Shown here: piece after piece, positions 940 to 58,234 of the stretch
Position numbering within the stretch: the first letter of the stretch is position 1
Layout: every line of letters starts with the position of its first letter
IMG/VR virus record: IMGVR_UViG_3300026549_000033
Coordinates: 131,222-195,221 of that record
Source: a virus
Taxonomy: Duplodnaviria; Heunggongvirae; Uroviricota; Caudoviricetes
Reading direction: 5' to 3' (one strand)
Length of the DNA stretch: 64,000 nucleotides
Notes under the pieces: generated by a model
What the model saw: only the letters and a program-made list of their open reading frames with translations
The model's database searches: none
Told to the model about the DNA's origin: nothing
Made by a program: the position numbers and the translations under genes

Positions 940-1991
940 GTTTCTTACACTTCCTTATAACTTCTTCGTTCTCAGCTTGTATATCTTTAACTTTCTTAAT
1001 GGCAGCAGGGTCCCCCCATTAACTCCATATTTGGAAGAACTCTTACAGCATTAAGAGAACCGTCCTGCATCATTTCTGCCATTTTATGTGCATTCCTATC
1101 CAAAACTTTTTCTTTTCTTTTCTGCTGAAAATCTATCAACTCCCCTTCAATAAGAGAAATTAAACTTTCAAAACATTCATTAGAAAAAACTTTTTCTAAT
1201 TTACTTCTATAGTGTTGGTCTATCATAGCATTGGCATGGTCCGAGGCAGCTTTTTGAGTTTCTTTTGCAGTTTGAGGTTTTCTATTTAGCAGTCTTTCCT
1301 TAAAATCTGCCAAAGCTTTTTCATGTCTCTTATTACGAGCCCCTACAAGATTAGTACTCTTACTAAATTTAGCGTCCGCATCTAAAGCATTCTTTGTAAG
1401 AGAGTTTATTTTATCCTCAGAAGACTCAGGGTCTCTTAAGGCTGCTGTAAGCTTTCTATCCGCGTCCAAAGAATTTTGTCTTCTTTTGTCGTAAACTGCC
1501 TGAACTGTCTCTGTATCAAGCTCATTAATAAATTCTTCTACTAAACTTAATATTTCTTCAAAGCACTCATTAGAAACCGCAAAAGACTTTTCTAATTTAT
1601 TTCTCAAATGTTGGTCTATCATAGCATTACCATGTTCAGACTCTGCCCTTTGAGTTTCTTTTGCAGTCTGAGGCTTCCTATTTAATAATCTTTCTTTGAA
1701 ATCTGCTAATTTCTTTTCAAGTCTTTTATCACGCTTAGCCCTAAGGTCTTGATTCTTCTGATATTTTTCTCGAGCAACTCTTCCGTCTTCTCTCGCCTGT
1801 TGTACCTCTTCAGCGTCATAATTTCCATTATTTTTACGAACTGCTTCTAAATACTTATCAATAGCCTTTCCTTCATTCTCTCTTCTCTTCTCCGCAGAGT
1901 TATTTACAGTCTCGTCGTCAAGCTCATTGATAAATTCTTCTACTAAACTTAATATTTCTTCATACATTTTTTCCATATTAACCATCCTCAT
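932..1991 (-). CDS. Putative internal head protein with internal duplication; +1 homopolymer frameshift near 1012-1017
   Basis: Three copies of (SNECF)EEILSLVEEFINE-type motif and duplicated LADFKERLLNRKPQTAKETQ block; removing one C from the C6 run extends the frame (MGDPAAIKKVK...KHG*) to an 8-nt overlap with the next start; start may be ATG at 1976. Confidence 0.6.
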
Positions 1992-2628
1992 CAGGTATAT
2001 TCATTGTAAAACCACTTTCCAAATCTTCCATTGTTGCTGCATTATCGCTCTTCGCAGACCCTAAGGCAGACCCTAATCCCATAGAACTTCCTTCCTCGTT
2101 CTTAGGTGAATAATCTTCCCCTTCAACTTTTGTCTCCTCCTGCTGCTCTATTTCACTGTCTTCGTCCTTTGCTAAAGGTGATAAATACATGCGAAGCAGC
2201 ATCATTCCATCAGCTCCTGTAACTACAAGTTTCTTATCTACAAAAAACTTACTTATAGACTGACCTTGATGAACCACTACCTTAGTAGCTATTGGTAATT
2301 CTCTTTTTTTAGAAGTTTCTATAAAAGGTCTGTCTATAGTATCCTCTGTAAAAAAGCTATCAAATTCTGCTTCAGAAGAATTCATGGCTTGCTTTGGAAT
2401 TAAAAAAGGAATGTAAAACTTTGTTTTTAAATCAGGTTCTTTGGCATAAGTGGGACTTTGGTGAGGTGTGAATATCTTCATATCCCTGTATTTAACCCTA
2501 TCCGTATAAGGTGGAAATATGGGGTAATAGACCTCGCACGGTAAAGCAAAAACTTCTTCATAAGATCTAGTAATCTTATTCGAAATTTTTACGTATCTCT
2601 TATTTACAGCATTTACCAAATCTTTCAT
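1978..2628 (-). CDS. Hypothetical late protein (possible head-completion/neck protein)
   Basis: 216-aa ORF directly preceded by the ATTAAATTTT late motif. Confidence 0.45.
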   Translation of the reverse strand: MKDLVNAVNKRYVKISNKITRSYEEVFALPCEVYYPIFPPYTDRVKYRDMKIFTPHQSPTYAKEPDLKTKFYIPFLIPKQAMNSSEAEFDSFFTEDTIDRPFIETSKKRELPIATKVVVHQGQSISKFFVDKKLVVTGADGMMLLRMYLSPLAKDEDSEIEQQEETKVEGEDYSPKNEEGSSMGLGSALGSAKSDNAATMEDLESGFTMNIPDEDG

Positions 2629-2646: not shown

Positions 2647-2883
2647 CTATGTATAGAAGTTAGGCTCAATCTCATTATACAATATTGTACCTCTCCCGTC
2701 TAAGAAGCAATCCATTTTTCTATATTCCCGAGACCAGTCAAGAGTAGGAGCACACCGTAGTTTACGACAATCTATGAAAAACATGGATTTCCTGTCTCCT
2801 TTTATGTCAACAGCAACTCTCAGGACATGCCCTCCATAATGTCCACAGTAAGCTATTATCTTTCCTTCTTTTAACTTAAGCAT
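2647..2883 (-). CDS. Mini-gene array member H
   Basis: MLKLKEG... to ...LYNEIEPNFYT; 8-nt overlap with upstream gene. Confidence 0.7.
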   Translation of the reverse strand: MLKLKEGKIIAYCGHYGGHVLRVAVDIKGDRKSMFFIDCRKLRCAPTLDWSREYRKMDCFLDGRGTILYNEIEPNFYT

Positions 2884-3127
2884 ACCAAACTGGTTCCTCG
2901 TCTATGTAGTACAATGTATCATATTCACAAATACAACTTAATATTCTATCTTCACATGGAAGAATCCCATAAGTCGTTTCTCCGAATTTCTGGTACTTCT
3001 TTTTACACGAATACCCTTGAAGGTAGAATATGAAGATTTCTGCTTCCTCTAAGACAGTAAGCTTTGCCATGGAAGGCTCACGCGTGGATTCTATTACCAT
3101 TACTTTTCCTTTTCCAAATTTAAGCAT
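2876..3127 (-). CDS. Mini-gene array member G
   Basis: MLKFGKG... to ...LYYIDEEPVWYA. Confidence 0.7.
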   Translation of the reverse strand: MLKFGKGKVMVIESTREPSMAKLTVLEEAEIFIFYLQGYSCKKKYQKFGETTYGILPCEDRILSCICEYDTLYYIDEEPVWYA

Positions 3128-3328
3128 AGTAGCTTGGCTCCCTTCTCATCAAATATACTGCACTCTTATCTATTACACAATAAAATCACACCAACAGTGA
3201 TTCACTCTTTTATAGCACCTCATATCTGTTATAACAACATTTTCTATACCTAATTTACTTTTTATCACCCACACATTGCTTCCTTTAGTAAAAGACGCAA
3301 CTATTCTTCCTTCTTCAAATTTAAGCAT
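3120..3328 (-). pseudogene. Mini-gene array member F, 1-nt frameshift (not in ORF track)
   Basis: Begins MLKFEEGRIV and ends in another frame VYLMRREPSYYA*; span 209 nt, one base short of in-frame. Confidence 0.65.
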
Positions 3329-3557
3329 AGTAATTCGGTAAGTCCTCCTCCAAGTAAAAAGTATCTCCTATTTCTGCAAAGTTACCAATACCATAAAGCA
3401 TCTTAAGTGCAGCGGTATGCTTCCTAAATATCATAGTACCCTTATCTAAAAAATAATAGCATACTTTATTAGAAGTTTCCCATTCCTGTATAACAAAATG
3501 TGTACTGCTAAAATAAAACACTACTTCTTCCTTATTAAAAGTTTTAAACTCAAACAT
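3321..3557 (-). CDS. Mini-gene array member E
   Basis: True start MFEFKTF at 3557 (ATGTTTGA overlap, GAGGAG RBS); ends FYLEEDLPNYYA. Confidence 0.7.
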   Translation of the reverse strand: MFEFKTFNKEEVVFYFSSTHFVIQEWETSNKVCYYFLDKGTMIFRKHTAALKMLYGIGNFAEIGDTFYLEEDLPNYYA

Positions 3558-3768
3558 AAAATAATGGCTCCTCCTCTTCAAGGAAATATCTACCTGCATA
3601 CTCAAAGAATGTTCCTCTTGGGTGTCTGCGCCCCCTATCACTTTCATAAGAGAAAGTACCTTCTTTCATATATAAAAATATGTAATCTATGTTAGGTAGT
3701 CTCACTATATAAAAAGAAGGTGAGTGCTTCAATATGTCTTTATCGTCATATTCTTTAAACTCAAACAT
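3550..3768 (-). CDS. Mini-gene array member D
   Basis: MFEFKEY... to ...YFLEEEEPLFYV. Confidence 0.7.
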   Translation of the reverse strand: MFEFKEYDDKDILKHSPSFYIVRLPNIDYIFLYMKEGTFSYESDRGRRHPRGTFFEYAGRYFLEEEEPLFYV

Positions 3769-3982
3769 AAAATAATGGCTCCTTCCTCATTAAATATAAA
3801 GTAGAACCTTCTTTCAAGAAATTCCAAGGAGTCGTAGGAACCCCGGGAACTGTTATTAGTGGCCAACAAAGACCTTTAGCGTAATCAATATGGACATAAC
3901 CTTCATTTGTATATATGTCTTCAATTCTTTCTGAGAGTGCCCCCAATCTGTATAAATATGTAACTTCTTTAAATTCAAGCAT
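3761..3982 (-). CDS. Mini-gene array member C
   Basis: True start MLEFKEV at 3982; ends LYLMRKEPLFYV. Confidence 0.7.
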   Translation of the reverse strand: MLEFKEVTYLYRLGALSERIEDIYTNEGYVHIDYAKGLCWPLITVPGVPTTPWNFLKEGSTLYLMRKEPLFYV

Positions 3983-4253
3983 AATAATTAGCAAGCTCCT
4001 CTTCTAAGAATAATATACTACGTGCTCTTACAAAAGTTCCACGACTCGTATAGCTCTCAAAATAAAGTTCTCCGTGCATTAAGGTTATTGGAGCAGCATG
4101 CGCAAATCCTATAAAGCAACCTTTCTCAAGCTTATATGACTCTGAAGCAAGTCGGTAGTAGTCATTTTTTCCTACTCTAATTACGTCATTAAAATAGGAG
4201 CAATTATCCTTTTCTAAGTCTAAAATTTCTATTCTGTAAGGTTCTAATATCAC
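3975..4253 (-). CDS. Mini-gene array member B
   Basis: GTG start; ends LFLEEELANYYA. Confidence 0.7.
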   Translation of the reverse strand: MILEPYRIEILDLEKDNCSYFNDVIRVGKNDYYRLASESYKLEKGCFIGFAHAAPITLMHGELYFESYTSRGTFVRARSILFLEEELANYYA

Positions 4254-4263
4254 TTCTTATCTC

Positions 4264-4491
4264 CTACTTATAGAAAGAATAAAAACCTTTATCTTGCACA
4301 ATAACTTCTCGACCTATTATTTTAAAATAAAGAATTTGAGATAGACTGTAATGTATAGGAGGACCATCTATCTTTTTTAAGAATACCATATTTCCGTACT
4401 TTAAATTATTAGACATAAAATTAATTCCGGCACAATCAGGTCTTCCATAGTACTTATCTTTAAATTCTTCTATTCCTACTATATCAAACAT
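4264..4491 (-). CDS. First small gene of the mini-gene operon (leaderless)
   Basis: 75-aa ORF starting 6 nt after a sigma70 -10 box. Confidence 0.6.
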   Translation of the reverse strand: MFDIVGIEEFKDKYYGRPDCAGINFMSNNLKYGNMVFLKKIDGPPIHYSLSQILYFKIIGREVIVQDKGFYSFYK

Positions 4492-4497
4492 GCCTTA

Positions 4498-4526
4498 ATA
4501 ATAGCACATTTTCTAAAACTTGACAA
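4498..4526 (-). promoter_or_regulatory. Sigma70-type early promoter of the mini-gene array
   Basis: TTGTCA-17nt-TATTAT with extended TG, then 6 nt to ATG. Confidence 0.7.
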
Positions 4527-56608: not shown

Positions 56609-58234
56609 ATGGAGTTTACACAAATGGCAAAATTCAACAACTTAGAACAAGTAAAAAAAGAATTTTTACTTAGATCAAACGGTGGAGAAAAATTAGGTCT
56701 TCATCAAACTCGTTACAGCGACTTGGACAAATATGCTCCAATCGTTGAAAGACTTTTAGACACAGATTACAACAAAGCGTCTGGTTTCTCATTCTCAGAA
56801 TTGATGGAAGCAGTTTCATTAGTTGCTGACAACTATAGCTCAGCTGACTATGCTAACGCTATCAAAAGAGACCCGCAAGCTGTAAAATTGGACGAATCTT
56901 TGGGTAGAACAGTTGAAGGTGAAAACAACTTCTGGGCTATCTCTGAAGCATTGAACCCTGCAACTACAGCTCAGGCTCCTTACCCTGTTCCGTCAATTGC
57001 GTTGACAACTTATCAGTATGAAAAATCAGTTCTTCCGTATTTGTGTCACCAATTCGACCTTAAAGGTAATCGTGGTTTAGTTTATTACCAAAAAATTAAT
57101 GCTGAAAATGCTAAAGGTAATATTAAAGAAAACGATTTGTTAGGTTCTCCTAAAGAAATGAGCAAACAGCCTTTAGACTTCGTTGGTACTAAAACTGTTG
57201 AAAAAGAAGAATTAGGAACATTGGCTACAGGTGAAACTGATGTAACTGCTACATTAGAATACTTCCCAATCCAACCTGGTTCTTTGGTTATCAACGTTGA
57301 AGGTATGACAGGTTACTTCAAAGACTTTGCTCAAGAAGGAAATCCTGAAGTTGCTGCTCTTTACGCAATCGGTGGTGATTTGGGTAAAGCTACAGTTAAC
57401 TACAAAACTGGTGAAGTTACTATTGAATTGGCTACAGCAGCTGTTCAATCAGGTGGAAAAGTTTATGCTACTTACGCTAGAGACGTTGAAACTGTTGAAG
57501 GCGGAAAAGCTAACATGGCTAGAGTTCAAGTTTCTCTTGAATCTAAACAGTTAGAAGCAGAAGACTTCTCTGTATTCACAGAAACTTCTATCTACCAAGA
57601 AGCACTTTCTAAAGCAATCTTTGGTTTAGATTGGAACTCTCAAGTAGATGAAGCTTTGGCTGCATTGTACAACAAAGAAGTTGCTAACAAAATCGTTGCT
57701 GAAATTAAAGCAGCTATCCCTGCTGAATCAGTAAAAACTCACTCTTTGAACAAAATTGGTGGTGGAAACAACGATTTATTCAACGTACAATTCATTTCTG
57801 TAGTACTTGGTAAATTGGGTGCTTTAATCACTGCAGCTTCTGGTCTTGGTAACAACCAATTGTCAGCTATTGTTATCAATATTGACGTATTACCTATCTT
57901 CAAAGCTCTTCCGAAATTCACAGCTGCTAATGCTGATTTCGAAGAAACTATGGGTGGTATGTTCTTGGCTGGTCTGTATGACGGTATGCCTGTTATCGTT
58001 GGTTTCGATCCAATTGTAACTACTGGCGAAGTCATCGGTATCTACAAAGGTAAGAAAGATTTCTTAACTCCTTATTGTTGGGGTACTTTCATTCTTCCTA
58101 TCATCAGAGATATCTTCGACCAAGACAACTTGGCTGTAAATCGTAAACAGTTAATCGCTTCTGCTGCAGGTGCTGTAGTTGCTGAAAGATTGGCTGCTAA
58201 GATTACTATAACAGATATTGACGATGTTATCTAA
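56609..58234 (+). CDS. Major capsid protein (T4 gp23-like)
   Basis: Gene order, optimised codons, AISE/A cleavage-like site, HK97-type C-terminal motifs, strong terminator. Confidence 0.85.
   Translation: MEFTQMAKFNNLEQVKKEFLLRSNGGEKLGLHQTRYSDLDKYAPIVERLLDTDYNKASGFSFSELMEAVSLVADNYSSADYANAIKRDPQAVKLDESLGRTVEGENNFWAISEALNPATTAQAPYPVPSIALTTYQYEKSVLPYLCHQFDLKGNRGLVYYQKINAENAKGNIKENDLLGSPKEMSKQPLDFVGTKTVEKEELGTLATGETDVTATLEYFPIQPGSLVINVEGMTGYFKDFAQEGNPEVAALYAIGGDLGKATVNYKTGEVTIELATAAVQSGGKVYATYARDVETVEGGKANMARVQVSLESKQLEAEDFSVFTETSIYQEALSKAIFGLDWNSQVDEALAALYNKEVANKIVAEIKAAIPAESVKTHSLNKIGGGNNDLFNVQFISVVLGKLGALITAASGLGNNQLSAIVINIDVLPIFKALPKFTAANADFEETMGGMFLAGLYDGMPVIVGFDPIVTTGEVIGIYKGKKDFLTPYCWGTFILPIIRDIFDQDNLAVNRKQLIASAAGAVVAERLAAKITITDIDDVI

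Follow-up and report, generated by a model that had tools for sequence, protein, structure and literature searches.

Eight small open reading frames (o1 to o8) lie in a row on the minus strand of an uncultured phage genome, in the 5' to 3' order promoter-like site, o1, o2, o3, o4, o5, o6, o7, o8 and a conserved gene of 216 aa, which served as the anchor for comparing the locus among relatives (Table 1). The window, i.e., the whole stretch of DNA that was analysed, is the 64-kb end portion of an IMG/VR virus record, which is 195,221 bp long and carries direct terminal repeats. The gap between o1 and o2 amounts to 10 nt and contains GGAG, and o8 is separated from the anchor gene by 18 nt. The genes neighbouring the array are lysis and tail genes. 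An earlier sequence-only reading had described the locus as an array of eight ORFs; seven of them, o2 to o8, were recovered as members of one family, whereas o1 lies outside it and o6 is frameshifted. The tail of o6 (..YLMRREPSYYA) is out of frame in the window because one T of a T-run at about position 3186 is missing; the 99% relative L004 has this extra T, and o6 is intact there with 69 aa. Window o6 thus carries a frameshift by a 1-nt deletion, which is either real or an assembly error.

Table 1. Features of the array locus, in window coordinates and in 5' to 3' order.
Feature	Position	Strand	Description
Promoter	4498..4526	-	TTGTCA-17-TG-n-TATTAT; sigma-70/sigma-A-like; consensus scan 10/12 plus extended -10
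o1	4264..4491	-	75-aa leader gene; not a family member
o2	3975..4253	-	GTG start, 92 aa; first family member; family tail, own head
o3	3761..3982	-	73 aa; head MLEFKE; tail ..LYLMRKEPLFYV; 8-nt overlap with o2 (ATGCTTGA)
Junction o3/o4	3754..3783	-	Second exact copy of the 30-nt repeat
o4	3550..3768	-	72 aa; 8-nt overlap with o3 (ATGTTTGA)
Junction o4/o5	3543..3572	-	Exact copy of the 30-nt repeat (tail codons, overlap, head codons)
o5	3321..3557	-	78 aa; 8-nt overlap with o4 (ATGTTTGA)
o6	3120..3328	-	Broken: N-terminal part 3173-3328 (51 aa), tail 3120-3185 in a different frame
o7	2876..3127	-	83 aa; head MLKFGKGK; tail ..YYIDEEPVWYA
o8	2647..2883	-	78 aa; last member; tail ..NEIEPNFYT
Anchor gene	1978..2628	-	Conserved, 216 aa; directly downstream of the array

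Ends, middles and junctions of the array genes

The seven tails of o2 to o8, with that of o6 in another frame, match (L/F/Y)xxxE(E/L)(P/A)xxY(A/V/T), and the six heads of o3 to o8 read M(L/F)(E/K)(F/L). According to phmmer, Smith-Waterman alignment with shuffles and profile-profile comparison, similarity among o2 to o8 is limited to the first 5-11 and the last 12-20 residues. The earlier description of the middles as unrelated holds at sequence and profile level except for o2 and o5 (z 4-5) and, weakly, o6 and o7 (z 2.3). A divergence of the middles via paired frameshifts was ruled out, with neither cross-frame nor nucleotide similarity between them. A family HMM matched the seven array genes with E-values of 1e-15 to 1e-30 and nothing else in the 195-kb genome, and no further copy of the tail motif was found in it. 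Since both motif and HMM matches are confined to the array, and since 5 of the 13 candidate -8 overlaps between long frames genome-wide fall within this 1% of the sequence, the array is more than chance. Comparison of o7 with o3 by hhalign gave a probability of 92% over 20 residues; full-length homology is unproven because profile-profile comparison between orthologue groups aligns only the last 12-20 residues. The leader gene o1 has neither head nor tail motif, reached an hhalign probability of 0.2% against the family and is unrelated to it at profile level; its dN/dS of 0.18 in comparison to L004 indicates purifying selection. Searches of Pfam, PHROGs, PADLOC and PDB sequences with the array proteins returned nothing significant, neither among anti-phage defence families nor among phage protein families. 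We regard o2 to o8 as a new protein family that is without relatives in Pfam, PHROGs and PDB.

The six junctions from o2/o3 to o7/o8 are 8-nt stop/start overlaps, as had been claimed: ATGCTTGA at o2/o3, ATGTTTGA at o3/o4 and o4/o5, and ATGCTTAA at o5/o6, o6/o7 and o7/o8, the o6/o7 junction having this standard form though the o6 tail is out of frame in the window. All six spell ATG(C/T)TT(A/G)A (ATGYTTRA), which fits NTGNNTRA, the co-directional -8 class, and a genome-wide search found this motif at a -8 junction in the array only. The overlap has this form because the family heads and tails are conserved: TATGCTTAA is translated as Y-A-stop in the upstream frame and as M-L-K in the downstream one. 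The two frames covary, as an upstream GCT or GTT (A/V) is at the same time a downstream CTT or TTT (L/F), and a TAA or TGA stop an AAx or GAx codon (K/E). Moreover, a GAGGAG, AGGAG or GAGG site made of the Glu codons of the upstream tail lies 9-12 nt ahead of each ATG. GAG accounts for 12 of these 15 codons, as compared to 23% of Glu codons genome-wide; the bias is direct evidence of selection on the nucleotide sequence and points to a selected Shine-Dalgarno site within the tails. The tail is also constrained as protein, since it is retained in o8 and in the lone member of the relative L003, neither of which is overlapped by a family gene. A -8 start/stop spacing (NTGNNTGA) is a recognised and enriched class of coupled gene pairs (PMC12548453), namely the class of Huber et al. 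(2023) as described in the review by Brown and Wade (2025; PMC12548453). The proposal that the junction serves as a translational coupler is backed by the overlap class, the Shine-Dalgarno site and the GAG bias, and each gene would accordingly be coupled in translation to the preceding one.

The statement that two junctions share an identical 30-mer was accurate as well, the exact copies being those of o3/o4 and o4/o5. Given the identical peptides, such identity by chance was estimated from codon usage at roughly 1-2% and is thus mildly unexpected; it may be due to a short gene-conversion tract or to recent common origin. Synonymous codon identity across the tails (32 of 70 observed, 36 expected) does not exceed expectation, and therefore no general homogenisation of junction DNA is indicated. 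The members are grouped differently by their parts: by head, o4 goes with o5, and o6 with o7 and o8; by tail, o2 goes with o5, and o3 with o6; by middle, o2 goes with o5, and o6 with o7. Hence o6 has a head like those of o7 and o8 and a tail like that of o3, and o5 combines a head like that of o4 with a middle and tail like those of o2. The similarity of neighbours in the array favours tandem duplication and the discordance of heads and tails favours some recombination among members, both tentatively, as the grouped stretches are short.

AlphaFold models were obtained for two members, o7 and o3, each from one orthologue group only. The o7 protein is predicted to be a seven-strand all-beta structure (pLDDT 81, pTM 0.69) with low confidence for the last six residues (EPVWYA), and the o3 model, which is less confident (pLDDT 62), is all-beta too. 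When the two are compared through the family alignment, 28 of the 31 residues in o3 strands coincide with columns that are strands in o7, a value that 8% of circular shifts reach as well. The models are consistent with a shared small beta fold. No informative match to o7 came from fold searches with Foldseek (PDB and BFVD), VIA-align wide and the ESM Atlas, the best score of Z 5.5 lying below background.

Promoter, orthologues and variation among relatives

The presence of a sigma70-type promoter ahead of the array was confirmed, and this promoter is conserved as DNA in two relatives: the block AACCTTGTCAAGTTT...TGTGCTATTAT is invariant in the window, L004 and L002, while its flanks diverge. 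In L003, the promoter before the single family member has the same spacer, TTTTAGAAAA. The ATG of o1 starts 6 nt past the -10 hexamer in a leaderless-like layout. About ten further strong promoters of the genome that have an extended -10 are similar to the array promoter, and no internal site of comparable strength was found within the array. The host-type promoter suggests transcription by the host polymerase and, because of this, early or constitutive expression, the lysis and tail genes next to the array notwithstanding.

In a profile search, 64 of 5.8 billion proteins matched, and HMMER, run exhaustively on 1.84 billion cluster representatives, gave only 18 clusters. All matches retain head and tail, and every one can be assigned to a particular member as its orthologue or else to one of a few additional subfamilies; a match of 1850 aa (P0065) was rejected as a low-complexity artefact. 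Identity inside the orthologue groups is 56-92%. For o3, 27 to about 30 orthologues were found (56-88% identity), for o7 18 to about 20 (58-77%), for o4 eight (76-92%) and for o2 seven, the latter with at least three deep allelic types. The o5 cluster (P0067) has 14 members and the o6 cluster (P0013) 33, and o8 has several orthologues including P0050, P0073 and P0075. Because each member has its own orthologues at this level of identity, the middles are stable, selected sequences, and the earlier term 'hypervariable' is wrong for most members. The exception is o2, the middle of which differs from that of L004 with indels and saturated synonymous sites (pS 0.84). An origin by a diversity-generating retroelement (DGR) was rejected, as the reverse transcriptase PF00078 is absent from the genome and o2 varies by allelic divergence that has reached saturation and includes indels. 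Beyond these matches, GenBank phages searched by blastn and tblastn contained no relative, a search of IMG/VR for further arrays by means of the o7 and o3 profiles led to no contig other than that of L004, a scan of JGI metagenomes with the o7 profile gave no match, and a degenerate junction DNA pattern yielded single chance matches only across IMG/VR. So far, the family seems confined to one clade of uncultured phages.

The relative L004 carries the eight genes in an order identical to that of the window. Apart from the o6 T-run, the two sequences differ only in a patch (about 4500 to about 3840) that comprises o1, o2 and half of o3, namely its first half. The only recombination breakpoint that could be mapped, by this comparison, is the right-hand one of the patch; it lies inside o3 at about 3840-3880 and not at a junction. 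In L002 (75%), promoter and o1 are followed by two genes on the opposite strand, and no family member was found anywhere in its 89 kb; in L003 (62%), the homologous promoter drives one family member of a different subfamily; in L127, L128, L129 and L130 (57-68%), other genes and no member lie upstream of the anchor. The spot just upstream of the anchor gene is variable in all relatives. Since the content differs in this way from relative to relative, the position is an accessory hot spot; the seven-gene array is recent and peculiar to one sub-lineage. The array genes are dispensable in relatives. The idea of variable cargo behind one promoter is backed in that promoter and spacer are conserved and the content after them differs; as to cassette order and number, content varies as anticipated, but order is the same in the window and L004.

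Additional variants were found among the orthologues. The o7-type protein P0078, from an ORF called too long, has an N-terminal extension of 30 residues that corresponds to the 3' end of an o4-type gene read in an alternative frame (66% identity to window positions 3647-3543, E 1e-11), and therefore o7 directly follows o4 there through a standard junction, with o5 and o6 missing. In some o7-type orthologues, the reading frame continues past the junction stop (..YAWI, ..YAWVYAISY..), which implies a differing downstream neighbour, and two o7-type genes appear to share one contig of 7.7 kb, as judged from its length alone. Array content thus varies, with junction-precise changes.

Origin of the array and alternative readings

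We consider it probable that o2 to o8 are a lineage-specific tandem array of paralogues with dual-coded coupling junctions, which lies in an accessory hot spot downstream of a conserved promoter of host type. The sequence-only reading had offered diverged paralogues of one small fold as an alternative to its cassette proposal, and this alternative fits best. In this explanation, a single new family, consisting of small, soluble proteins with an all-beta structure, would have been tandemly expanded, with two parts kept, namely the N-terminal strand (M-L/F-E/K-F-K..) and the C-terminal strand with its flexible acidic-aromatic tail (..LYLxEEPxxYA), while the remainder of each protein would have diverged past recognition. 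The ends would be doubly constrained, as protein and as nucleic acid, in that the last two codons and the stop of one gene form the first three codons of the next and the tail Glu codons its Shine-Dalgarno site, so that the array would be read as one message. We propose that gains and losses then necessarily fall at junctions, probably by unequal homologous recombination within the junction DNA, as the members have no other DNA in common. Junction recombination is likely a by-product of this layout rather than its purpose, with no dedicated cassette system behind it. As a best guess from the sequences, the members might be accessory, host-directed small binders that share the C-terminal acidic-aromatic tail.

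The original proposal, in which the junction is a selected, integron-like recombination handle that allows in-frame cassettes, each an unrelated mini-gene, to be captured, lost and reshuffled with no integrase involved, is unlikely in our judgement. It would account for the restriction of common DNA to the junctions, the differing content of relatives, the passage from o4-type to o7-type in P0078 with o5 and o6 skipped, the discordant heads and tails, the 30-mer and the middles without detectable homology. However, the members are stable orthologous lineages within the phage clade only, none was found standing alone elsewhere in the genome or outside the clade, and the only two full arrays compared (window and L004) have the same order. 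Moreover, the mapped breakpoint lies inside o3, synonymous identity of the tails is not raised, and neither recombinase nor attC-like structure was detected: the integrase PF00589 had no match in the whole 195-kb genome, although 14 of 14 control genomes matched, and the repeat search found no inverted repeats or attC-type palindromes at the junctions, only direct repeats. Any tandem paralogue array would give junction-precise copy changes, and dual coding together with a structural strand would be a plain cause for the conserved ends. A narrower form, in which 30-40 nt of in-phase junction DNA is kept because homologous recombination there would allow members to be added, dropped and swapped in frame, so that every lineage would have its own set, i.e., integrase-free, family-restricted cassettes of host-directed proteins with a common C-terminal docking tail, likewise has a small chance of being correct.

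The seven paralogues could also be subunits of one hetero-oligomer, with coupling to equalise their amounts and the terminal strands as contacts, which would be compatible with paralogue origin and in line with the conservation of the terminal strands alone and with a tail that the monomer model predicts to be flexible. Since L003 carries a single member, another relative is without o5 and o6 between o4 and o7, and o6 is frameshifted in the window, a complex of seven fixed parts is unlikely, and we hold the subunit explanation to be quite improbable. That the ORFs are chance frames in repetitive DNA and not real genes, as their lack of a match in any family, defence or structure library might be taken to mean, is effectively refuted: orthologues are conserved as proteins in many independent assemblies, o1 is under purifying selection, the all-beta model predicted for o7 is confident, and a Shine-Dalgarno site at correct spacing precedes every start.

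Under the paralogue-array reading, the locus defines the family for the one clade in which it occurs and is an unusually clean case of overlapping frames and an embedded ribosome-binding site that freeze gene ends while the remainder drifts. It also cautions that conserved ends with unrelated middles need not mean cassette exchange. If the tail were a docking motif, the family would consist of adaptors with one handle and many bodies, and if junction recombination were frequent, the array could serve as a simple model of phage gene-family turnover.

Comparison with known systems

The array shares with -8 coupled gene pairs the spacing class, the Shine-Dalgarno site inside the upstream coding sequence, the co-directional orientation and the location in one operon. 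It differs from them in that one junction is repeated six times in succession between paralogues and in that the overlap is locked to conserved protein termini (A/V with L/F; TAA/TGA with K/E). Like integron gene-cassette arrays, it has a single promoter upstream of short, dissimilar, promoter-less genes, and its content varies among relatives. In contrast to integrons, the phage genome is without an IntI-type integrase and without attC-type imperfect palindromes, the genes overlap whereas integron cassettes are separated by recombination sites, and the 'cassettes' all belong to one family of one phage clade. Large phages and other large DNA viruses carry multigene families that are lineage-specific and arranged in tandem, as well as clusters of small genes that are early or accessory ('morons', host-takeover modules). 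The array agrees with these in its small genes, its own host-type promoter, its variable spot and a copy number that changes via repeat recombination; it differs in that the family is new and that the conserved ends, as opposed to the diverged middles, and the dual-coded junction go beyond the usual description of such modules.

Variation within the array

Alignment of the array of eight minus-strand small ORFs with that of the 99% relative L004 revealed a mosaic patch at window 3840-4500 (L004 6120-6780), which covers o1, the ORF outside the family, o2 and the first half of o3, while the remainder of the 7.5-kb alignment is identical. In the middle of o2, the nucleotide difference between the window and L004 amounts to about 50%, and at least three deep allelic types of this gene were found in metagenomes. 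In o6, the T-run at window ~3186 (3173-3190) is 1 nt shorter than in L004, and this deletion breaks o6 into a 51-aa ORF and a tail that is out of frame; o6 may truly be a pseudogene here, or the missing nucleotide may be an assembly error in a homopolymer.

Junction stop and promoter spacing

Several metagenomic orthologues of family members (P0018, P0040, P0046, P0049, P0053, P0056, P0060, P0112) end in ..YAWI, ..YAWT or ..YAWH. From these protein ends and the window DNA, we infer that the TGA stop of the 8-nt stop/start junction was changed to TGG and that the conserved TTTAA of the F-K codons of the next gene provides a back-up stop two codons on, which would result in a -14 overlap. At three strong extended -10 promoters the ATG lies just 6 nt past the -10 hexamer (TATAAT-nnnnGC-ATG), and this spacing suggests that early mRNAs of the phage are leaderless or near-leaderless.

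Surroundings of the variable site

In the 75% relative L002, the place of the array is held by two opposite-strand genes of 218 aa and 102 aa, neither of which matched the family. In L002 and in L127, one of four relatives at 57-68%, the conserved 216-aa anchor gene comes immediately after a module of 537-aa, 308-aa, 317-aa and zinc-ribbon genes, whereas the homologues in this genome are on the other strand, across the record ends and ~130 kb from the anchor. Judging from these module positions, a large rearrangement evidently adjoins the hot spot just upstream of the anchor. Downstream of the anchor, a 331-aa ORF carries two internal repeats of ~130 aa each (..ECFEEILSLVEEFINELD..) with self-matches at 77-81% DNA identity; its version in L004 is longer (352 aa).

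Positions of the features discussed
Feature	Position	Strand	Basis
Extended -10 promoter, close ATG	window 4489-4526		
Extended -10 promoter, close ATG	genome 14789	+	
Extended -10 promoter, close ATG	genome 117667	-	
Module homologues	genome 437-2670; window 56609-58234	both +	comparison with L127 and L002
Genes replacing array	L002 6880-7855	-	
331-aa ORF	window 996-1991	-
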